The translations under genes were made by a program, and so were the position numbers. Under the pieces are notes generated by a model, which worked only from the letters and a program-made list of their open reading frames with translations, was not told the origin of the DNA and made no database searches. Of a DNA stretch of 64,000 nucleotides, positions 22,886 through 33,696 are shown in pieces (position 1 is the first letter of the stretch; every line of letters starts with the position of its first letter). Source of the stretch: Candidatus Omnitrophota bacterium (GTDB lineage: Bacteria; Omnitrophota; Gorgyraeia; Gygaellales; Profunditerraquicolaceae); the NCBI GenBank assembly GCA_026416665.1, contig JAOAET010000051.1:11800-75799 (forward strand), read 5' to 3'.

Positions 22886-23344
22886 TTATTTTCTACTTGT
22901 ATTTTTTAAAACTTTCCTAATTTTTTGCTCCATCTCCCTTCGTTTAATATCCTCTCTCTTATCCCACTTCTTTTTACCTTTAGCTAAAGCAAGCTCTACC
23001 TTAGCAAATCCCCTATCATTAAAGTATACCTTAAGTGGCACAAGGGTCAATCCTTTTTGTGAAAGAAACCCTGCAATTTTTAAAATCTCTCTTTTGTGTA
23101 AGAGCAAACGTCTTGTGCGTGTTGGCTCGACATTTAAATAACTTGCTTGTGCATAAGGACTTATGTGTGCATTATAAAGATAAACCTGTCCTGCCTCTAC
23201 TCGAGCAAAACTATCTTTAAGATTAATCTTGCGTGCGCGAAGAGATTTGACTTCACTACCTTTTAATTCAATACCTGCCTCAAAACGCTGTAATATCTCA
23301 TAATCACGAAATGCCTCTTTATTAGTGGCAATGGCTTGGTTCAT
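22886..23344 (-). CDS. smpB: SsrA-binding protein
   Basis: 'KGSEVKSLRARKINLKDSFARV' and 'LLLHKREI' SmpB signatures. C-terminal basic tail. Confidence 0.85.
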   Translation of the reverse strand: MNQAIATNKEAFRDYEILQRFEAGIELKGSEVKSLRARKINLKDSFARVEAGQVYLYNAHISPYAQASYLNVEPTRTRRLLLHKREILKIAGFLSQKGLTLVPLKVYFNDRGFAKVELALAKGKKKWDKREDIKRREMEQKIRKVLKNTSRK

Positions 23345-24297
23345 TATAAAGTTCGGATGACAAAATATAAACTTAAAAATACAGGAATGGTAATTAAACT
23401 AAAAAGATGCCCCCAGAATATACCTTGACTTATCAAGATATCCTTTGCATTATATCGACTAACAATTACTGAGAGATTAGTGGCTGGAGGCATAGCAAGC
23501 TGAAGAATAATTAAGAACCCCAGCATCTCTGGTGTCGACCAAACAAAAATAAACCAAAGCCCTATTAAAGGCATAATCACTAATTTAGCTAAAGTAAACA
23601 TTGTGATTGGTTTTAAATACCTTTGGTTAATTCTTATTAAAGCCAAGTTACCACCTACAACAATCATTGCCAAAGGAACAGTGCAGTCTCCTATTTTCTC
23701 AAGTGGGTTTAAAACCCAAGACGGAAAAAAATGCTGCCAACCTAACCAAACCACAGCTAGCCCTAATAAGGTTGCTACTACTGGTGGATTGAATAAACTT
23801 TTAAAGTCAAACTCCTTTTTATCAAAATAAGTAAGCATATATATACCTAAAGAGAACATCACCAGATTAAAACCAAGTAAGAATAAAAACAGATAAATGA
23901 GTATAAGTTCTTGTTTATGATTTGGCAGAAGAGAGGATAAAAGCGTAAGTGGTAAATATCCTGAATTTTGAAAGGCAACCAGACTGATAAACTGTAACCT
24001 CTCTTCTTTTTCCTTAAGGAAACCACTACAAAAATATCCTACTATAAAACCTAATGCTGTGATAGCTAAACTAAGAACAGGAAACAACCACCATTGGGGG
24101 AAAGTATGAAAACTGAAGCTTTTAAGAAGACGGCTAAAAATTAGAAGAGGAAGCGTTACCTCAACTGTCAAAAGGCTTATAGTATTTAATCCACCTATCC
24201 CTAAGAGGTTTCGCTTGATAAGGAAAAAACCTATACCACCCAGAATAAAGCTTGAGCTCACCCCGGTCAAGGTGACCTGAAAAGCTTCCGCAAACAC
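23344..24297 (-). CDS. AEC (auxin efflux carrier) family membrane transporter
   Basis: About 10 predicted TM helices in a 5+5 arrangement. Similarity to the Mem_trans family is by eye only. Confidence 0.5.
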   Translation of the reverse strand: MFAEAFQVTLTGVSSSFILGGIGFFLIKRNLLGIGGLNTISLLTVEVTLPLLIFSRLLKSFSFHTFPQWWLFPVLSLAITALGFIVGYFCSGFLKEKEERLQFISLVAFQNSGYLPLTLLSSLLPNHKQELILIYLFLFLLGFNLVMFSLGIYMLTYFDKKEFDFKSLFNPPVVATLLGLAVVWLGWQHFFPSWVLNPLEKIGDCTVPLAMIVVGGNLALIRINQRYLKPITMFTLAKLVIMPLIGLWFIFVWSTPEMLGFLIILQLAMPPATNLSVIVSRYNAKDILISQGIFWGHLFSLITIPVFLSLYFVIRTL

Positions 24298-24529
24298 ACC
24301 TTTCCTCCTTATAATAAATAATTATAGCAGTTAAAACTATAAATCTCAAGAGAAAATGAAGTTATTTATTCCTAAAAAATAGGAATTATCTCATAAAACT
24401 ACCTCTCTAAGAAATCTACCCTATTATTTACAATCTTTTCTTACTTTAAATTTCTCAGTAAAAATAACTCAAGAATATAAAATATATATTGGCCAAAAAT
24501 ACGTTTACTCTCTGAAAGGTTTAAGAAGA

Positions 24530-24558
24530 TTGACAGATAAACTCTAGTAAATTATACT
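24530..24558 (+). promoter_or_regulatory. Sigma70 promoter for tRNA-Leu (TTGACA-17-TATACT)
   Basis: TTGACA at 24530..24535, an exact 17-nt spacer and TATACT at 24553..24558, 12 nt upstream of the mature tRNA 5' end. Confidence 0.7.
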
Positions 24559-24570
24559 TAGGTAGTATAC

Positions 24571-24655
24571 GCGGAGGTGGCGGAATTGGCAGACGCGCTG
24601 GTCTCAGAAGCCAGTGACGCAAGTCTTGAGGGTTCAAATCCCTCCCTCCGCACCA
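24571..24655 (+). tRNA. tRNA-Leu (anticodon CAG)
   Basis: GCGGAGGTGGCGGAATTGGCAGACGCGCTGGTCTCAGAAGCCAGTGACGCAAGTCTTGAGGGTTCAAATCCCTCCCTCCGCACCA. Long variable arm, anticodon loop CTCAGAA, encoded CCA. Confidence 0.9.
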
Positions 24656-24698
24656 TATCCATATATAGTGTAGGTTATCTAAAAGCTGTTGTGGCTCT

Positions 24699-25622
24699 TT
24701 AGTCTTTAATAAGGGAAACACCTTTACAGGAATTAATTTCTACCTGAACTGTTACATGGTGAATCCCAAATCTTTCTTTAAGCATCTGTTCTATTTCTCT
24801 AATTAATAGACACGTCTTACTTACTGGCATATCCTCTTTTAGATTAATATGGCCTTCTAAGTGGATATCCTTTTCATTTATTGACCATACATGGACATGA
24901 TGAATATCACTTACACCGTTAATTTCTTCAATTGCTTTTTGTATCTCACGAAGCTTTATTCCACGCGGGACATTCTGCATAAGGATATGAATACTTTGTT
25001 GAATAATTAAATAGCCTTCCTTTAGTACATAAAGTCCAATGATGAAGGTAAGAAGCGGGTCTATCCAATATATCTTTAAAAACACTATTGCAACTGCTGC
25101 TATAATTACCGCAAAAGAAGAAAGCGCATCAGAAAACAGATGCACATAGGCAGTACGAATATTTAGGTCGCGATGGGCACTGGTCTTCAATAGAATTACA
25201 GAAAACACATTAGAGAATAATCCCACTAATGATACTATTAACATTGTCCAACCATTAATTGGTCTTAAAGTATTAAGGCGCAGAAACGCCTCCTTGAACA
25301 AAAAAAGTGAAACCACCACTAAAATACAAGAATTAAAAAGGGCAGCTAGAATCTCTGCCCGTTTGTAGCCAAAAGTCTTATCTAAAGAACTCATCCTCCT
25401 ACTTAATCTTACTGCAAATAAACTAATTACTAATGCGGTGGTGTCGCTCAAATTATGTAAAGCGTCAGAAATAAGCGCTAAACTGCCTGAGAATATCCCA
25501 CCAATTACCTCTGCTAAAGTTGTTAAGAAGTTAAGCAGAATTGCCAAAAACAAACGCTTTTCTTTTTTTCTCTCCGGATGATGCTCCATCTTCTTTTCTT
25601 TAGCGTATAGAAAAATTTTCAA
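24699..25622 (-). CDS. Cation diffusion facilitator family metal transporter
   Basis: Six TM helices, 'HNLSDT' / 'HLFSDALSS' metal-site motifs, and a His-rich C-terminal cytoplasmic domain 'HHVHVWSI...LEGHI'. Confidence 0.8.
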   Translation of the reverse strand: MKIFLYAKEKKMEHHPERKKEKRLFLAILLNFLTTLAEVIGGIFSGSLALISDALHNLSDTTALVISLFAVRLSRRMSSLDKTFGYKRAEILAALFNSCILVVVSLFLFKEAFLRLNTLRPINGWTMLIVSLVGLFSNVFSVILLKTSAHRDLNIRTAYVHLFSDALSSFAVIIAAVAIVFLKIYWIDPLLTFIIGLYVLKEGYLIIQQSIHILMQNVPRGIKLREIQKAIEEINGVSDIHHVHVWSINEKDIHLEGHINLKEDMPVSKTCLLIREIEQMLKERFGIHHVTVQVEINSCKGVSLIKD

Positions 25623-25720
25623 GAATCTTGTGAAGTAATAGGCATTCTTACAAAACTGTCTTTAAAGATAGTGAGGAATTTCTTTTAGCTAGTTTTTTTG
25701 TTTTTAACCATTTATTTTCC

Positions 25721-26320
25721 TTAGAATTTTCTGCTTACTCCTAACAAAACCAGATGACTATCAATACCTTCATTAGGTTTTTTTATACTGCAATTAGAGA
25801 GATGACGAAAACGGTATTCTAAACTAACAGCACTATCTTTTATTTTACCTATCTTGATTCCCAACCCTAAGGTATCAATAAAATTAAACTGGGTTGCTTG
25901 TTCTCGGGTATGCTGGCTCATATAAACAAGCCCACTTCCCAACCGAACATACGGAGCTATTTTTTTATCTGGTGACAATAAAAATAATTTTATAAATAGC
26001 GAACAACCTGTTTCTATATTACTATTGGGTCTTGTAACAATAGCAATAAATGGCTCAACATCAACTACTGCTCTTCTCTCAAACCAGCTTAATTTTATTT
26101 TCTGCCAAAACTTATCCACATTATAGCTAATGCAAAAATAGATAGGCCAAAATACATAATGTCCTTTCCCATGTAAACGCCCCCGTGCCCCACCAGAAAA
26201 CCATTGGAATTCATCAGGTAAGGAGAAAGTTTTCTGCTGTAAGCAACCAAACAAATAAATTACTGCTAGAAAAACGATAGATAAAAGTTTATTGCCTATC
26301 AGATTATTTCTCTGTCTCAT
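25721..26320 (-). CDS. PagL-like outer-membrane lipid A deacylase (acyloxyacyl hydrolase family)
   Basis: Signal peptide. C-terminal 'FRHLSN' matches the conserved His/Ser catalytic motif of PagL. Beta-strand-like alternation, terminal aromatic residue. Confidence 0.45.
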   Translation of the reverse strand: MRQRNNLIGNKLLSIVFLAVIYLFGCLQQKTFSLPDEFQWFSGGARGRLHGKGHYVFWPIYFCISYNVDKFWQKIKLSWFERRAVVDVEPFIAIVTRPNSNIETGCSLFIKLFLLSPDKKIAPYVRLGSGLVYMSQHTREQATQFNFIDTLGLGIKIGKIKDSAVSLEYRFRHLSNCSIKKPNEGIDSHLVLLGVSRKF

Positions 26321-26331
26321 CTTTCCCCCCT

Positions 26332-27414
26332 TTACTTATTTAGTTTTAGTCTCCATTGTCTTGATGCTTCTTTATAGGCAATAAAAGACTCTTTTACAGA
26401 GAAATCATTTCGTAAAAGGCCAAAATAATCTATACCATTTTTCCAATGTCCATTAGTGTCACGCCAAAAGGCCCAAAATATTTTTTCAACGTACTTAATA
26501 TCGAGTAATTTAGTAAATACTAACCTAACCCATTGTGCTTGCTGGTGTTCATTAGGATTTTTACCCAACCACCAATTATCTACCCGCAACCCTCTACGCA
26601 CCCCAGGAGCCCCCAGTTCAGTAATCCATATTTTTTTATGCCCATCTTTGTTTCGCTGCATAATCTTATGTACCCGTTCAAGAAATGCCTGTGCACGTTT
26701 CAAAGCAAGCGGATCAAGCGGTGACTCAAACAAATGCACATTCATTATATCAAAATATCCAGCTGCACCAGCATCGTATAGTCTGTTTACCGAAGCAAGA
26801 CCATTTGCCAGCCCACCATTTAACACAAAACAGTTAGGATCCTCTTGTTTAATTGCACAATAAACATCCTTTAACAGCCCAACATATTTAACCAGTCCAT
26901 CTTGCGGCTGCCAATAAACATTAGAATCCGGCTCATTCCATATCTCCCAGTATCTTATTCTGTCTTTATAACGATTTACTACTTTTTGGGCAAATTGGAC
27001 AAATAGAAGATTATCTTTAGGTGGACAATTCCATCTTCCACAACTAGATGCCCAATCAGCACTATAATCAAGTAAACCTAGAATTTGAATATTACGACGC
27101 ACTAACATCTCAACTAGCTCATCATAAAGTTGAAAATTCCAAATCCCTTCTTGGGGCTCAATTTCTTGCCAAACGAAATCAAGCCGGACAATACTTACTC
27201 CTGCCTCTACCATCTTATCTACTGAAAGTAAACGACTATCTGTGTCAGGGTAGTGAAAATTGTTCCAGTTGTGGTTCCAGTGTAAAAAATCTAATACACC
27301 AAAAGGTGTATCACAGATATCTCTATTATCAGTTCCCATAACAACCCCTTGTCCTAAAAGAAAAATTAATATCAAAATACTACCTAGCTTTTTTTTCATA
27401 TGGCCTGTCTTCAA
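26332..27414 (-). CDS. Secreted TIM-barrel glycoside hydrolase (GH5/GH39-like clan GH-A)
   Basis: Signal peptide. 'RYWEIWNEPD' (acid/base Glu in the NEP motif) and 'ITELG' (nucleophile Glu). Confidence 0.65.
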   Translation of the reverse strand: MKTGHMKKKLGSILILIFLLGQGVVMGTDNRDICDTPFGVLDFLHWNHNWNNFHYPDTDSRLLSVDKMVEAGVSIVRLDFVWQEIEPQEGIWNFQLYDELVEMLVRRNIQILGLLDYSADWASSCGRWNCPPKDNLLFVQFAQKVVNRYKDRIRYWEIWNEPDSNVYWQPQDGLVKYVGLLKDVYCAIKQEDPNCFVLNGGLANGLASVNRLYDAGAAGYFDIMNVHLFESPLDPLALKRAQAFLERVHKIMQRNKDGHKKIWITELGAPGVRRGLRVDNWWLGKNPNEHQQAQWVRLVFTKLLDIKYVEKIFWAFWRDTNGHWKNGIDYFGLLRNDFSVKESFIAYKEASRQWRLKLNK

Positions 27415-28762
27415 CGTTAATGTAATCTGTAAATGAAAGTGACTCTCCCAACTCCTGCTTAACTACTCTAATACGGTCAGCTGTGAAAGGATGGGTCTTA
27501 AGATAATTTTTAGGACGAGGTGGTTTCCTACGATTGTCTTCTTGAAGTTTTTCGAGAAAACTAATCATACCCCGCGGGTTATATCCAGCAAGTTTTGCAT
27601 ATCGTGCTCCTAACTGGTCAGCTAATAATTCATCTTCACGGCTGTAACCCAATAAAAGAGTAGTAAACGCTGCATCAGAAGTTGCTAAAACTTCAGAATT
27701 CTCAGACAAGGGAATACTTAACAAGCGCATAAGGGAATATCCCATAATTGCCTGTAGTCTTTTGATACTGTGCCGAGCAACAATATGCCCTACTTCGTGT
27801 GCAAGAACAGCTGCTAACTCATCATCATTGGAGATTTTTTCCACCAACCCCTTGAAGACATATACATAACCACCAGGAAGGGCAACGGCATTCACTTCAT
27901 TTTCTTCAAGAACTTTAAATTCGTAATTAACATCCTTTCGGTCTGAGACAGTAGCAATTTGCTTACCAATACTTGCTACTTTCTCCTGAATAAGAGGATC
28001 AGAAACAGGCTTGTATTGTTTTTCAATTTCTTTAGCCATTGCTTGTCCTAAGGCTATTTCCCGCTCTGTAGAGTAATAAAATACTTCTTGTTGTCCTGTA
28101 ACTACATTGTATTCTGTAGAACAACCAGAGAATAAACCAGAAACCAAACTCAAGATACAAAAAATAGAAAAACTAAAAATACGCACCCCTATTTCTTTTA
28201 ACATCCGATATAATCGGCGAACAGGCAACCCCACTACATTATAAAAACAACCATCAATCCTTCGGATAAAAAAACCCCCTTTACCTTGTATATCAAAACT
28301 GCCCGCCTTATCCAAAGGATTAACACAGCGGAAATAACCTTTTATTTCTTTGTCTTGTAGATGGTCCATATATATCTTTGTCTTCTCAACGGCAAGCTTG
28401 GTAATTTTTTTCTCTACATCAATAACACATAACCCAGAATAAATCCACTGGGTTTTTCCTGATAAATATTTAAGCATCTTGCTTGCACTGGCTAAATCTT
28501 TAGGCTTTCCAAATACTTTTTTACCTTGCACTACAATCGTATCAGCTGCAATAACAATACCTTTTTTTAAACGGGCAGCTACTGCCTCTGCTTTACGACG
28601 GGCGTTTCTCTTTACTAGCTGAGCAAAAGACATCCCCTCTATAAAATCATCCTCTTTTATTCTACTAGGTATCACAGAAAACTTCAAACCAAATAACCTT
28701 AACAATTTCCTCCTTGCTTTAGAATCCGAAGCTAAATAGATAGGTTTTTGTTTCATTGCCAA
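27380..28762 (-). CDS. Fusion of a Maf-like nucleotide pyrophosphatase with an M48-family (HExxH) Zn metalloprotease, via a signal/lipobox-like hydrophobic segment
   Basis: N-terminal Maf motifs 'IYLASDSKARRKLL' and 'VIAADTIV'. Mid-protein 'RIFSFSIFCILSLVSGLFSGC'. C-terminal M48 'LAHEVGHIVARH' plus the downstream third-ligand region 'ELLADQLG'. One continuous reading frame. Confidence 0.7.
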   Translation of the reverse strand: MAMKQKPIYLASDSKARRKLLRLFGLKFSVIPSRIKEDDFIEGMSFAQLVKRNARRKAEAVAARLKKGIVIAADTIVVQGKKVFGKPKDLASASKMLKYLSGKTQWIYSGLCVIDVEKKITKLAVEKTKIYMDHLQDKEIKGYFRCVNPLDKAGSFDIQGKGGFFIRRIDGCFYNVVGLPVRRLYRMLKEIGVRIFSFSIFCILSLVSGLFSGCSTEYNVVTGQQEVFYYSTEREIALGQAMAKEIEKQYKPVSDPLIQEKVASIGKQIATVSDRKDVNYEFKVLEENEVNAVALPGGYVYVFKGLVEKISNDDELAAVLAHEVGHIVARHSIKRLQAIMGYSLMRLLSIPLSENSEVLATSDAAFTTLLLGYSREDELLADQLGARYAKLAGYNPRGMISFLEKLQEDNRRKPPRPKNYLKTHPFTADRIRVVKQELGESLSFTDYINVEDRPYEKKAR

Positions 28763-28788
28763 CCACTTCTTACTTTTTGCGGATTTTT

Positions 28789-30051
28789 TTAAGATAGAGT
28801 CTTTGTTTTAGCAAGTAACGCAGCAGATTTACCCGCAAGCCAACCGGTAGAGAAGGCTGCTTGTAGGTTAAATCCACCTGTATCAGCATCTACATCAATA
28901 ACCTCACCACAGAAATACAACCCTTGTATGAGTCTTGACTGCATAGTCCTTGGGTCAATATCTTTTACGGATACACCACCTCTAGTAATCATCGCTTCTT
29001 TTAACAAAGCAGTAGAGCAGATTCTTAAGCGAAAATCCTTTAATAATTGCACTATCTGTTGACGTTGTCTGGCAGTTATTTGATTGGCAGTTGTATTTGG
29101 TGAAAAGCCCAAACGTTTAACGAAGACATCTATCATACTAATTGGTAAAAGTTCTTTTAAAATATTCTTCCATCTTTTAGCTGGGGCATTTTGAAATTCC
29201 CGCAACAGTCTATTGTGTAGTTGTTCGAAAGACAAAGCAGGTTTGAAATCAATACTTACCCAAACCTCCTTTTTCTCTAGTAGCCAATCTGCAATTAATC
29301 CACTATAGGTTAACACAAGCGGGCCTGAAATGCCTTGGGCAGTAAAAAGCATCTCTCCAATATCAGTAATAATTTTCTTATTTTGATTAAAAAATGTCAA
29401 ACGTATATTTTTAAGAGTCAGTCCTTCTGGCAATACCTCATCCGTTCCTACCCATAAGCCCACCAGACCCGGCCTTAATGGCACAATACTGTGGCCTGTT
29501 TGTCTTGCCCAACGGATTCCGTCACCTGTAGAACCAGTATCTGGATAAGAAACACCCCCGGTAGCTATTACTACACAACAAGCAGATAATCTACGACCAT
29601 CTTTAAGTTTTACTGCACGAATATGATTTTCCTCAGTCACAATGTCTTTTACAGAACAGTTACAAATAACCTGCACATTTCTGCCTCTTAGTTCTCGCTG
29701 TAAAGTTTCCAATATAGTTTTAGCTTTACCTGAAGCAGGAAAAACTCTTTGCTGACGCTCAACTACCAATTCTACTCCACGCTCTCTAAAAAATTCCATT
29801 AAATCTGTATTAAAAAATTCTTTAAATGCATCACGTAAGAACTGACCGTTAGAGAAGAATCTTGAAAGAAATTCCTCAAGGGAACATAAATTAGTTAGAT
29901 TGCAACGCCCTTTTCCTGTTAGAAGTAATTTACAACCACAAGAAGAATTTTTCTCAAGTAGAATAACTGGATGGTAAAATTGTGCTGCGCAAATAGCAGC
30001 CATCATTCCCGCTGGCCCTGCGCCAACTATTATGATAGGAAGTTTTCTCAC
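28789..30051 (-). CDS. HI0933/BaiN-family FAD-dependent oxidoreductase
   Basis: 'IIIVGAGPAGMMAAI' dinucleotide-binding motif, 'ATGGVSYP' and a C-terminal 'TGGFNLQAAFSTGWLAG' signature of the HI0933 family. Confidence 0.75.
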   Translation of the reverse strand: MRKLPIIIVGAGPAGMMAAICAAQFYHPVILLEKNSSCGCKLLLTGKGRCNLTNLCSLEEFLSRFFSNGQFLRDAFKEFFNTDLMEFFRERGVELVVERQQRVFPASGKAKTILETLQRELRGRNVQVICNCSVKDIVTEENHIRAVKLKDGRRLSACCVVIATGGVSYPDTGSTGDGIRWARQTGHSIVPLRPGLVGLWVGTDEVLPEGLTLKNIRLTFFNQNKKIITDIGEMLFTAQGISGPLVLTYSGLIADWLLEKKEVWVSIDFKPALSFEQLHNRLLREFQNAPAKRWKNILKELLPISMIDVFVKRLGFSPNTTANQITARQRQQIVQLLKDFRLRICSTALLKEAMITRGGVSVKDIDPRTMQSRLIQGLYFCGEVIDVDADTGGFNLQAAFSTGWLAGKSAALLAKTKTLS

Positions 30052-30056
30052 AAAGG

Positions 30057-30617
30057 CTACACCCCAAGTTCTTTGAGTGTAAAGATTGGTCTAAGATTAA
30101 TGTTATGCTGGGCAAGATTTTCTTTTGCACCTTCGCTGCGGTCAACAATAACCAGTGCCTGCGATACGTGTACACCTAATTCCTGCAAAACTTGTTTTGC
30201 TTCAATAAGTGAATGCCCGGTCGTTGCTACATCGTCCACTAAAACAGCAATCTCATTAGTTTCTAAAGCAGGTCCTTCAATTCTCTGTTGCCTACCGTGG
30301 TCTTTAGGTTGTTTACGAATAATAAAGGTCTTAAGAGGTCGCTGGTTTAAAAAGCTTAAGCACGCTACTGCTCCAACAATGGGGTCTGCTCCTAAGGTAG
30401 GACCACCGAACGCATCTACTGTTTCGTCCTTTAACATTTCTAACATAAGCGAAGCCACCAACCAAGAGCCTTCCGGCATCATAGTGATAATTCTTCCATC
30501 AAGATAAAAAGAACTTTCTTTTCCAGAAGAAAGAATAAATTTTCCGCGTTTAAGGGCATGGCGTTGGATAAGTTCAAGAAGCCTTTTACGCATCTGTTGT
30601 TCATTAAGCTTTTCCAT
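30057..30617 (-). CDS. pyrE: Orotate phosphoribosyltransferase
   Basis: PRPP-binding motif 'VLVDDVATTGHS', 'GGPTLGADPIVGA', about 186 aa. Confidence 0.8.
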   Translation of the reverse strand: MEKLNEQQMRKRLLELIQRHALKRGKFILSSGKESSFYLDGRIITMMPEGSWLVASLMLEMLKDETVDAFGGPTLGADPIVGAVACLSFLNQRPLKTFIIRKQPKDHGRQQRIEGPALETNEIAVLVDDVATTGHSLIEAKQVLQELGVHVSQALVIVDRSEGAKENLAQHNINLRPIFTLKELGV

Positions 30618-30773
30618 AATTAACCCCTTTTCTGCATGGCCTTTATATTTATAACTTTTGATTCTAGGACTTTGATTTAATTACAACTTTACTGGTATTA
30701 TACCATCCACCCTTCTATTGTCAAATAACCAAACCTTTGACAATAAGTTATTTCGTTGCTATGATAAAGCATT

Positions 30774-31508
30774 ATGGAAAACTTCTTAGTAAATTTCCTG
30801 CGTGGCTTACGCAATCTTATTTATCCAGCAGTATGTCTTGGTTGCTCAAAGAGACTAAATCCTGATGAAGAAAATAATTTTCTCTGTCGAAACTGCTGGC
30901 AAGCACTTAAAAGAAATGTTCCACCTTTTTGCACAAGATGTGGACGCACTATTGAACAAAAAAATAAAGATTTTAATATTTGTAAGCTCTGCCAGAATCG
31001 AAGCGTCTACTTCGATAAGGCATATGCACCTTTTCGCTATGAAGGAGCCATACAGAAACTTATTCATTCTTTTAAATATAAAGGAAATGATTATATAGGG
31101 AAGGTCTTAGCTGATAATATAATAGAGTTTATTTTAGAATACCATCTTCCTGTTTCTGAGATAGACGTAGTTATGCCTGTTCCGTTATATAGTAGTCGTA
31201 AAAGAGAAAGAGAGTTCAATCAGGCAGAAGTATTAGCTCAGTTAATCGCCAAAAGATTTAATAAAACCTTAGTAAGTAACAACTTAATACGCACGCGTTA
31301 TACTTCTACACAAACAGAATTAGAATATGCGCAAAGATTAGAAAATGTCAAAGGGTGTTTTAACCTAAAAAGGCCACAAGAAGTTGCTAATAAAAACGTG
31401 CTTTTGATTGATGATGTATTAACTACTGCCGCAACCGTCTCAGAAGCAGCATCTGTGTTGAAAGAAGCCAATGCCAGATACATTGTTGTTGTAACAATAG
31501 CAAACTGA
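30774..31508 (+). CDS. comF: ComF-family phosphoribosyltransferase-domain protein with an N-terminal double Zn-finger
   Basis: 'CLGCSKRL...CRNCW...CTRCG...CKLC' Cys pairs and a C-terminal PRTase motif 'VLLIDDVLTTAAT'. Confidence 0.75.
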   Translation: MENFLVNFLRGLRNLIYPAVCLGCSKRLNPDEENNFLCRNCWQALKRNVPPFCTRCGRTIEQKNKDFNICKLCQNRSVYFDKAYAPFRYEGAIQKLIHSFKYKGNDYIGKVLADNIIEFILEYHLPVSEIDVVMPVPLYSSRKREREFNQAEVLAQLIAKRFNKTLVSNNLIRTRYTSTQTELEYAQRLENVKGCFNLKRPQEVANKNVLLIDDVLTTAATVSEAASVLKEANARYIVVVTIAN

Positions 31509-31510
31509 TT

Positions 31511-32608
31511 ATGAGAATTATCAGAAATTATATTTTAAGTGAGTTTATAGGTCCTTTGGTTTTATCAATGTTATTGTTAAGTTTTGTATTTACAGTTGGG
31601 CACCTTGTGCAAATTGCTTATTTAGTAATAAATAAAGGAGTGGATACCTTTACAGTGATGAAGCTTTTTCTACTACGTATTCCAGCTATTTTTACCTATA
31701 TTCTGCCTATCTCCGTATTAGTAGCAGTACTTATTTCCTTAGGAAGACTATCTTATGACAATGAAATAATTGCTATGCGCGCAAGTGGAATCGCCCCCAT
31801 ACGTATCGTTGCTCCTCTCTTGGTATTAGGAATAATTTTAAGTATGGCGATGACTATTATCAATGACCGCCTTATTCCCTATGCACACTTCCAGTGGCGT
31901 AAGACTTTAATAGAAGTTGGGATTCGCAACCCAGCTGCTGCACTTGAACCCGGAGTATTTATTACCTCTTTTGAACGTTATATTCTATTTATCTATGCTA
32001 TTGATGGTGAGAGACTCTATAATATCCGTATTTACGAGCCTCAAGGGGAGAATAAACCTACCAGAGTGATTGTGGCACGCCAAGGAGAATTCCTTGCCCT
32101 GCCGGAACAAAAAATTATTAAACTTAAACTAATAGATGGGACTGCAGACGAACCTGACCCCGAACATCCCTCTAACTTCTATAAACTAAATTTTAAGACT
32201 TATTTTATGACTCTCCAACTTGGCCAATTATCTGACCCTAATAAATTAGAAAAGAAACCTAAGGATATGACGGTATCAGAACTTAAAAAGGAAATTATTA
32301 AACTTAAGCAGGCAGAGGTAGATACTACGCCGCTGTTAGTTGAGATTCATAAAAAAATAGCCCTTGGTTTTGCCCCTTTTATATTTGTGCTTTTAGGTGC
32401 ACCTCTTTCTATGATAACCCGCCGTAGAGAAAAATCTCTTAATTTTGGAATTGCCTTTATTATTATTGGTATATATTATCTACTTCTTTTAGGTGCAGAA
32501 GCGTTGGCTATACAAGGTTATCTACAACCTTTGATTGCCTTGTGGTTACCAAATTTAGTTTTAGGTTTTCTAGGTTCTTATTTGTTTGTCCGATTATGCG
32601 TATCTTAG
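31511..32608 (+). CDS. lptF: LPS export ABC permease LptF/LptG family (YjgP/YjgQ)
   Basis: Three N-terminal TM helices, a periplasmic beta-jellyroll region and three C-terminal TM helices. 'IAMRASGI' family motif. Confidence 0.75.
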   Translation: MRIIRNYILSEFIGPLVLSMLLLSFVFTVGHLVQIAYLVINKGVDTFTVMKLFLLRIPAIFTYILPISVLVAVLISLGRLSYDNEIIAMRASGIAPIRIVAPLLVLGIILSMAMTIINDRLIPYAHFQWRKTLIEVGIRNPAAALEPGVFITSFERYILFIYAIDGERLYNIRIYEPQGENKPTRVIVARQGEFLALPEQKIIKLKLIDGTADEPDPEHPSNFYKLNFKTYFMTLQLGQLSDPNKLEKKPKDMTVSELKKEIIKLKQAEVDTTPLLVEIHKKIALGFAPFIFVLLGAPLSMITRRREKSLNFGIAFIIIGIYYLLLLGAEALAIQGYLQPLIALWLPNLVLGFLGSYLFVRLCVS

Positions 32609-33696
32609 ACCGATATATCAGCAATTTTTTTCTAAAAATGTTCTTTTTATGCGTAAGTGTTTTTCTATTCCTTTTTATCATTGTAGATCTGTTTAGCCAT
32701 CTTGAACTTATTCTAGAAAATAAACTTGGCTGGGCCATCTTAAAACATTATTACATAAGCCTTCTGCCAACAGTTTTTATACAAGTCAGCCCATTTGCGT
32801 GCCTACTTGCTACATTATATACCTTTGCCAAGATGAATAATGATAATGAAATTACTGCGATGCGTGCTTCTGGTTTAAGTGTTTTTGATATTACCCGAAC
32901 AACTATCATCTTTGGATTTATTTTGACTATCTTTGTCTTTTGGCTCAATGACCGTGTTGCCCCAGCGTTCCGTTATAAAAACAGTATTATTAAAGAAACA
33001 ATGGAAAATGCAAAACCTAATAAAGAATCACTTCAGGAAGAGATATTGAATAATCTAGCTGTCTATGGCAGGCAGAATCGCTTGTTTTATATTAAAAAAT
33101 TCAATCTCTCAAATAACCAGATGTTTGATATCATTATCCTAGAACATGATAATAACCAAAATATCGTCAAAAAAATAGTGGCGACAAAAGGCATTTATAA
33201 CGATAATGTCTGGAAATTCTTCCAGTGTATAACCTATCAATATTCTGAAGATGGTCAGTTAAAAGAATCACCTAAATACTCGGAAGAAGAAATTGTCCCT
33301 TTTCCAGAGACACCCCAAGACTTTATCTTGCAAAGGCAAAACCCCTCTTTTATGAATGTAGCACAACTTGAGGATTATATCTGGCGTCTTTCTAAAAGTG
33401 GAGCAACAGCAGCAGCCCGAAATTTCCAAGTAGACTATTATGATAGATTTACTATGCCATTGGCAAATCTAATTATTATACTATTAGGTATCCCTTTTGC
33501 CCTACGTATAAGGAAAAAGGCACCAGGGCTGTCAGCGTTTGGAGTGTCGTTAATTTTAGGTTTCTTTTATTACATTTTGTCTGCAATCTGTCTTGCCCTA
33601 GGTAAAGCAGGTATCATTAGCCCTATTTTTGCAACTACCGCTAGCCATTCTATTATGCTTATTATAAGCCTATATCTTTTAAGTACCCTTCCTTAA
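32593..33696 (+). CDS. lptG: LPS export ABC permease LptG/LptF family
   Basis: 'MRILDRYISNFF' start, 'ITAMRASGLS' and the same 3+3 TM architecture. Paralogous to and overlapping the previous gene. Confidence 0.75.
   Translation: MMRILDRYISNFFLKMFFLCVSVFLFLFIIVDLFSHLELILENKLGWAILKHYYISLLPTVFIQVSPFACLLATLYTFAKMNNDNEITAMRASGLSVFDITRTTIIFGFILTIFVFWLNDRVAPAFRYKNSIIKETMENAKPNKESLQEEILNNLAVYGRQNRLFYIKKFNLSNNQMFDIIILEHDNNQNIVKKIVATKGIYNDNVWKFFQCITYQYSEDGQLKESPKYSEEEIVPFPETPQDFILQRQNPSFMNVAQLEDYIWRLSKSGATAAARNFQVDYYDRFTMPLANLIIILLGIPFALRIRKKAPGLSAFGVSLILGFFYYILSAICLALGKAGIISPIFATTASHSIMLIISLYLLSTLP

Follow-up and report, generated by a model that had tools for sequence, protein, structure and literature searches.

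A Maf–M48 fusion protein of Omnitrophota with a putative lipoprotein signal peptide at the domain junction

Results

The DNA analysed here (the window) comprises 64,000 nucleotides of a Candidatus Omnitrophota bacterium (assembly GCA_026416665.1, contig JAOAET010000051.1, positions 11,800 to 75,799), and its minus strand carries a gene in which a Maf nucleotide pyrophosphatase and an M48 metalloprotease share one reading frame. We consider it highly probable that this fusion is real and that it carries a retained lipoprotein signal between the two domains. On balance, a fusion of the two genes in place, with a precursor that is exported and probably cut at its lipobox, explains the data best. 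The pairing of the domains is not a discovery, since both families are well known and the architecture has been named automatically in GenBank. The new part is the junction, where a signal peptide with an invariant lipobox stands behind a folded cytoplasmic enzyme of about 190 residues, an arrangement conserved throughout a deep lineage of an uncultured phylum.

The reading frame and its two domains

The frame runs uninterrupted on the minus strand from 27380 to 28762 and comprises 460 codons when counted from a TTG. The gene probably occupies 27380 to 28756, because the homologues and a GenBank entry with 100% identity to the window protein (MCX7927654.1, "Maf and M48 domain-containing protein", 458 amino acids; P0001 among our matches) begin at the ATG at 28756, two codons inside the TTG. 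Residue numbers below follow the 460-codon frame. The Pfam profile Maf matched residues 7–190 (E 5e-54; 183 bits against a cut-off of 27; profile positions 1–186 of 187), and TIGR00172 (maf) was passed with 157.6 bits against a cut-off of 117.15. The Pfam profile Peptidase_M48 matched residues 259–436 (E 1e-35; 123.7 bits against a cut-off of 20.3; profile positions 4–184 of 186). The Maf and M48 matches are far beyond chance. The original prediction, which gave no strand, had described a single 460-codon frame with a complete Maf domain, followed by a hydrophobic segment ending in LFSGC and an M48 protease with HEVGH (H322–H326) and a downstream Glu ligand (E378), and all of these elements were recovered (Table 1).

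An AlphaFold2 model of the fusion had a mean predicted local distance difference test score (pLDDT) of 72.7, with values below 50 in the linker; being of moderate quality, it served only to confirm the two folds and not the arrangement of the domains. Foldseek with this model matched the Maf of Bacillus subtilis (4HEB) with a template modelling score of 0.90, and it also matched 3C37 and BepA.

The domain junction resembles a lipoprotein signal peptide

The only hydrophobic segment of the protein lies at residues ~190–216 (Kyte-Doolittle 19-residue maximum, 2.05) and ends in LFSG-C214. In the window protein, 19 uncharged residues (195–213) with a net positive flank precede the lipobox Cys. G213-C214 was invariant, first in 46/46 and then in 122/122 fusion proteins. 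The core of PROSITE PS51257, applied as {DERK}(6)-[LIVMFWSTAG](2)-[LIVMFYSTAGCQ]-[AGS]-C after a hydrophobic stretch, was matched by the window protein and by 109 of the 122 fusions. Among the fusions, columns of the hydrophobic region (h-region) were 17–54% identical, compared with 80–100% on either side, and such a drifting core between conserved flanks is the mode in which signal peptides evolve. The h-region is preceded by the basic last helix of Maf (R182...K189...R194), with a median net charge of +3 across the family, and this C-terminal helix (R182–R194) is the predicted n-region of the internal signal.

The linker shared homology with the signal peptides at the N-termini of free-standing M48 lipoproteins. 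The nearest standalone M48 homologues (~255–270 amino acids) start with classical lipoprotein signal peptides, such as MQRLFILVALGFFLCG/CATEYNLATG and ...ALALSG/CTTEYNLATKQEE (the slash marks the predicted cut), and share with the fusion the mature N-terminus C-(S/T)-T-E-Y-N-x-x-T-G-x-x-E. A PROSITE-type lipobox was present within the first 50 residues in 56 of 89 standalone representatives. This homology, together with the invariant Gly-Cys pair, strongly supports the earlier reading of LFSGC as part of a lipoprotein signal.

The lipobox and h-region of the fusion thus fit the PS51257 pattern of prolipoproteins processed by Lgt and LspA. However, the Cys stands at position 214 of the open reading frame (ORF), or 212 of the annotated protein, instead of within the first ~15–35 residues, which places it outside the positional rule of PS51257; the basic residue expected close to the N-terminus is supplied by the last Maf helix. 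Therefore, neither this rule nor standard lipoprotein predictors would call the fusion. A scan of the window ORFs gave no other credible internal lipobox.

Distribution of the fusion

A search of 5.8 billion proteins yielded at least 120 clusters of 442–470 amino acids that carry both domains and are 60–71% identical to the window protein. These clusters stem from many unrelated metagenomes and, where named, are assigned to "Candidatus Omnitrophota/Omnitrophica"; several are already titled "Maf and M48 domain-containing protein". The fusion had few representatives (P0121, 56% identity; P0122, 42%; and fragments crossing the junction) in a library clustered at 50% identity, where the next best matches were free-standing M48 proteins of ~255–270 amino acids and free-standing Maf proteins of ~190 amino acids. 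Among GTDB species-representative genomes, both domains stood in one stop-free frame at 13 loci (L001–L013; 43–61% identity), which belong to Omnitrophota or to otherwise labelled metagenome-assembled genomes clustering with them. No Maf gene occurred within 6 kb of M48 at the 54 M48 loci of other phyla. The conservation in clusters and species genomes supports the first of the two readings in the original prediction, a genuine fusion with Maf in the cytoplasm, one hydrophobic segment, and the protease in the periplasm.

The fusion had also been thought undescribed. No paper on it was found, whereas NCBI already names the architecture, so that the claim stands only for the literature. There, searches for the fusion, for an internal lipobox, and for an internalised prolipoprotein signal gave nothing relevant, and a survey paper on Omnitrophota makes no mention of a Maf–M48 fusion. 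The Maf fusions named in PMC3899018 are with methyltransferases (ASMTL), not with proteases.

Five of the loci examined (L013, L016, L020, L021, and L026) are titled 'uncultured Planctomycetia bacterium' yet carry the gene block of Omnitrophota described below or cluster with the M48 and Maf sequences of Omnitrophota; these labels are probably wrong or outdated. The matches also included tandem Maf–Maf proteins, read from sequence (P0230 and P0236; 423 and 345 amino acids), and M48–M48 proteins of ~500–530 amino acids, of which P0133 was confirmed by sequence and P0173, P0184, and P0220 were assigned from their length and two matched stretches.

Fused and separate states of the genes

A block of LptFG, ComF, pyrE, (HI0933), and maf–M48 is common to fused and unfused genomes. 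The same block flanks the fusion in L001–L013 and at the distant P0122 locus (42% identity). Orthologues with a stop codon after Maf exist in L018 and L019, which are separate lineages with adjacent genes. In L018, the maf stop is followed by a 31-nucleotide spacer and an M48 gene that encodes a signal peptide of its own, and in L019, the M48 ATG overlaps the maf TGA (ATGA), an arrangement typical of translational coupling. These stop-bearing genes are not evidence of an error in the window gene. In other Omnitrophota (L014–L017 and L020–L026), maf and M48 are unlinked. Because the block is shared and an adjacent but separate maf/M48 pair exists in relatives, we infer that the fusion formed in place.

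In neighbour-joining trees of each domain and of both concatenated, which covered 16 taxa and had weak internal resolution, a clade of L009–L012, L018, and L019 received 100% bootstrap support and a subclade of its fused members only received 0%. Two split genomes thus fall inside a clade with four fused ones, and therefore the fused or split state changed at least twice, through one fusion and one fission or through several fusions. Repeated switching is what would be expected if both forms give the same mature products. In the region 6498–6576 of L019, the M48 precursor has an unusually long n-region of ~37 residues before the hydrophobic core, and this may have been left behind when a fused ancestor split.

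Proposed processing of the precursor

In the established lipoprotein pathway, Lgt lipidates the lipobox Cys and LspA cleaves before it. If the lipobox of the fusion is functional, the precursor would therefore be cleaved into two proteins, and the hydrophobic segment need not be a permanent transmembrane anchor; the original prediction had not considered this likeliest outcome. In the mechanism that we propose, maf and an M48 lipoprotein gene would have been co-transcribed neighbours that lost the stop codon of maf along with the protease's start and n-region, and the basic C-terminal helix of Maf would have taken over as the n-region of the protease signal peptide. Maf would fold in the cytoplasm and remain there, while the internal signal peptide would take the nascent chain to the signal recognition particle (SRP)/Sec route and the M48 domain would be exported. 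Lgt would then add diacylglycerol to C214, and LspA would cut between G213 and C214. We lean slightly towards cleavage of the fusion by LspA.

The products would be a periplasmic M48 lipoprotein of the YcaL/LoiP type, acting in envelope quality control, and a Maf protein with a C-terminal signal-peptide tail, which might be kept in the inner membrane or trimmed by signal-peptide peptidases. The fusion would then mainly enforce 1:1 co-expression and be near neutral, rather than create a new bifunctional machine. The idea of a functional weld between house-cleaning and envelope quality control was not supported; the evidence points to co-expressed neighbours that merged into one frame.

Several observations weigh against fusion in place followed by export and cleavage. 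The phylogeny of the fused and split states is weakly resolved internally, as noted above. A motif scan for lgt and lspA found none in the 64-kb window or in the fetched Omnitrophota loci, a result that is uninformative at that scale. The literature searched shows no natural lipobox behind a folded domain of ~190 amino acids, and the tolerance of Lgt and LspA for such a substrate is thus assumed. Finally, the h-region was longer in the fusions (P0001–P0122; median 19 residues, often 19–20) than in the standalone proteins (P0127–P0270; median 13), and this could mean a permanent transmembrane anchor instead of a cleaved signal, although it may also reflect co-translational, SRP-dependent targeting of an internal signal.

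The last point leads to the strongest alternative, an uncleaved bitopic and bifunctional membrane protein, in which a permanent N-in/C-out anchor holds Maf on the cytoplasmic side and M48 on the periplasmic side; such a protein could couple the state of the envelope to nucleotide or cell-division control. The single hydrophobic segment, flanked on the N-terminal side by positive charges, agrees with this topology, as do the 19–20 residues of the segment in most fusions, which would span a bilayer, and the persistence of the fusion down to 42% identity. However, a plain anchor needs no invariant Gly-Cys lipobox amid a drifting segment. Additionally, the h-region spans 7–24 residues across the fusion family, and about 30% of the fusions have h-regions of 7–17 residues, too short for a stable transmembrane helix; the linkers of the species genomes L001 and L003 read as h-regions of about 13 and 15 residues. 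The separate genes of close relatives and the repeated change of state also argue against obligate covalent coupling. We therefore regard a permanent anchor as possible but doubtful.

The topology invites comparison with type II (N-in) bitopic proteins and substrates of regulated intramembrane proteolysis such as RseA, which likewise cross the membrane once, with the N-terminal domain in the cytoplasm and the C-terminal domain in the periplasm. By this analogy, a cut on the periplasmic side and the subsequent loss of the membrane stub would free the cytoplasmic part. The likeness is an analogy only, as there is no sequence relationship and the cut in the fusion would be made by LspA at the lipobox. 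We know of no RseA-type system in which the periplasmic-side cleavage is an LspA cut at a lipobox. A natural bacterial 'polyprotein' that LspA resolves as the first-site protease, with Maf tethered until a site-2 or signal-peptide peptidase frees it, is a speculative extension that we consider rather unlikely. If it were true, the localisation or release of Maf, and hence pyrimidine nucleoside triphosphate pools or the timing of division, would be tied to the flux of lipoprotein and envelope biogenesis, and the lengthened h-region of the fused lineages would be an adaptation to the LspA-resolved mode.

We judge it improbable that ribosomes also start at the internal ATG of M187, giving a signal peptide plus M48 with the full-length product as a minor species or by-product. 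From M187, MLKEIGVRIFSFSIFCILSLVSGLFSG/C would read as a textbook lipoprotein signal peptide of 27 residues, and 104 of 118 fusions have Met at this position. On the other hand, M187 aligns within the last helix of the B. subtilis Maf, and standalone Mafs of Omnitrophota, which have no in-frame protease downstream, also have Met there. In the other 14 fusions (12%), this Met is replaced by Ile, Leu, or Thr. The codons of the junction were read in ten species genomes, four of which have no usable internal start codon: L003, L006, and L007 lack any in-frame ATG, GTG, or TTG from the GLP motif of Maf up to the h-region, and the only candidate codon of L004 falls inside the h-region. These four lineages must therefore make the protease as a fusion.

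No Shine-Dalgarno-like motif was found upstream of the M187 ATG in the window. Its absence is not decisive, because such motifs are rare in this genome (present before the first ATG in about 20 of 57 long ORFs, ~35%, in a crude scan) and arguments from them on start sites are weak. With a Met that belongs to a Maf helix, is kept in standalone Mafs, and is replaced in part of the fusions, and with start codons missing from some junctions, initiation at M187 was rejected as a conserved mechanism. The original prediction had offered two genes, with the protease starting at 'MLKEIG', as its second reading, and this was not borne out as a general mechanism; minor internal initiation might still occur in this particular organism.

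Separate adjacent maf and M48 genes do occur (L018 and L019), but there is practically no chance that the fusion arose artificially in sequencing or assembly, by a lost stop or a shifted frame between such genes, because the identical in-frame junction recurs in at least 120 non-identical clusters and 13 species genomes from unrelated projects and because the linker (27–46 residues from the GLP motif to the Cys) is much shorter than the intergenic arrangement of the split genomes. The sequencing error that had been named as a possible refutation is thus discounted.

Processing of the fusion by Lgt and LspA would show that proteins with a large cytoplasmic domain at the N-terminus can enter the lipoprotein pathway, and such substrates are overlooked by signal-peptide predictors limited to the first ~70 residues. 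One translation product would then yield a cytoplasmic and a periplasmic protein in a bacterium. For annotation, 'probable precursor of two proteins' would be better than a bifunctional enzyme. One phylum records three states, with the genes unlinked, adjacent and coupled, or fused, and at least one reversal among them. The parts themselves are ordinary; it is the junction that makes an unusual test case for lipoprotein biogenesis and gene-fusion evolution.

The Maf domain

The Maf domain aligned end to end with the B. subtilis Maf 1EX2 (residues 3–188 of the 189-residue protein), and the alignment reached residue 194 of the fusion with no spacer before the hydrophobic segment. In the YhdE/BSU28050-type Mafs (PF02545; Tchigvintsev et al. 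2013, PMC3899018), the signature residues are Ser10, Arg13, Glu33, Lys52, Asp70, and Lys82 of YhdE, and the subfamily motif is Arg12, Thr71, and Gln153. The fusion shares with these proteins the full-length fold, with 35–37% identity to the B. subtilis Maf and Escherichia coli YhdE, and the six signature residues, present as S14, R17, E37, K57, D74, and K86. In 46 fusions, E37 was conserved in at least 90% and the other five were invariant. At the subfamily positions stand A16, T75, and Q159; the latter two are as in YhdE, while the first residue, Arg12 in YhdE and aromatic in YceF, is an invariant Ala in the fusion. The R12A mutant of YhdE retains near wild-type activity on deoxythymidine triphosphate (dTTP) (PMC3899018). 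A YceF-type Maf was ruled out, since the subfamily positions are T/Q and not Q/E. Judged by these residues, the Maf domain is probably YhdE-like and would be of the dTTP/uridine triphosphate/modified nucleoside triphosphate pyrophosphatase type. It differs from YhdE-type Mafs in that its C-terminus continues directly into the hydrophobic signal segment.

The M48 protease domain

Residues H322, E323, H326, E378, H424, P425, and R430 were all invariant among the fusions and aligned, in that order, with H136, E137, H140, E201, H246, P247, and R252 of BepA (E 5e-20). With the catalytic residues of Maf and M48 invariant or nearly so, both enzymes look active from their sequences. The closest solved structure is that of the M48 peptidase Q74D82 of Geobacter sulfurreducens (PDB 3C37; E 6e-43; ~37% identity over 211 residues), itself a free-standing structural-genomics protein without an assigned function.

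The fusion resembles the E. coli outer-membrane lipoproteins YcaL and LoiP, as well as the BepA protease domain (PF01435), in size (~247 residues in the mature protein), HExxH, Glu ligand, and H-P-x4-R plug, and like YcaL and LoiP it has a lipobox and no tetratricopeptide repeat (TPR) domain. We also count as a likeness to YcaL and LoiP, which in E. coli deal with outer-membrane proteins stalled in assembly, that the neighbours of the fusion gene include lipopolysaccharide (LPS) and outer-membrane genes (LptFG and PagL). In contrast to YcaL and LoiP, the precursor of the fusion places a 190-residue enzyme before the signal peptide. Equivalence to BepA was rejected (NF052400, 118 bits against 570; only positions 42–251 of 483 of the profile were matched, without the TPR region), and so was orthology to LoiP (NF052399, 61.6 bits against a cut-off of 365).

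Table 1 Features of the Maf–M48 fusion gene and its neighbours in the window.
Feature	Position	Strand	Basis
Maf–M48 fusion gene	27380..28756	-	458 codons + stop; mechanical ORF reaches TTG 28762
Maf (YhdE-like) nucleoside triphosphate pyrophosphatase domain (predicted), residues 7–194	28181..28744	-	Pfam, TIGR00172, 1EX2 alignment, Foldseek
ATG of M187 ('MLKEIG'), candidate internal start within the last Maf helix	28202..28204	-	Sequence, alignment
h-region of putative internal lipoprotein signal peptide, or transmembrane segment, residues 195–213	28124..28180	-	Kyte-Doolittle, column identity, homology
Lipobox L210-F-S-G-C214; predicted Lgt/LspA site between G213 and C214; Cys codon 28121–28123	28121..28135	-	Conservation, PS51257 core
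Mature M48 zinc metalloprotease (predicted), residues 214–460, without TPR domain	27383..28123	-	Pfam, 3C37, BepA, Foldseek
HEVGH zinc-binding/catalytic motif, residues 322–326 (H322, E323, H326)	27785..27799	-	Alignment to BepA, conservation
E378, third zinc ligand, equivalent to BepA E201 (ExxAD motif)	27629..27631	-	Alignment, conservation
H424-P-x4-R430 autoinhibitory active-site plug, equivalent to BepA H246/P247/R252	27473..27493	-	Alignment, conservation
pyrE-like phosphoribosyltransferase, upstream	30057-30617	-	Conserved block
HI0933-like flavoprotein, upstream	28789-30051	-	Conserved block
Secreted glycoside-hydrolase-like protein, downstream	26332..27414	-	ORF, neighbourhood
PagL-like lipid A 3-O-deacylase	25721-26320	-	Pfam, E 5e-20
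LptF/LptG	31511-33696	opposite to fusion	Neighbourhood

Gene neighbourhood in the window

In the window, genes for LptG/LptF and a ComF-like protein lie on one strand and diverge from pyrE, the gene of the HI0933-like flavoprotein, and maf–M48 on the other. The block continues past maf–M48 on the same strand with genes for a secreted glycoside hydrolase, a PagL-like protein, a CDF transporter, an AEC transporter, and SmpB. The start of the glycoside-hydrolase-like gene (ATG 27399 or TTG 27414) overlaps the last 20–35 nucleotides of the fusion gene, an overlap that suggests tight operon coupling. The PagL-like protein and LptF/LptG indicate that the organism probably has an LPS-containing outer membrane. 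The N-terminal hydrophobic segment of the PagL-like protein ends in LFGC. The strongly conserved block (22886–33696 of the window, on both strands; also L001–L013, L018, L019, and L081) combines genes for LPS and the outer membrane with those for pyrimidine and housekeeping functions, and the HI0933-like and glycoside hydrolase genes are its variable members.

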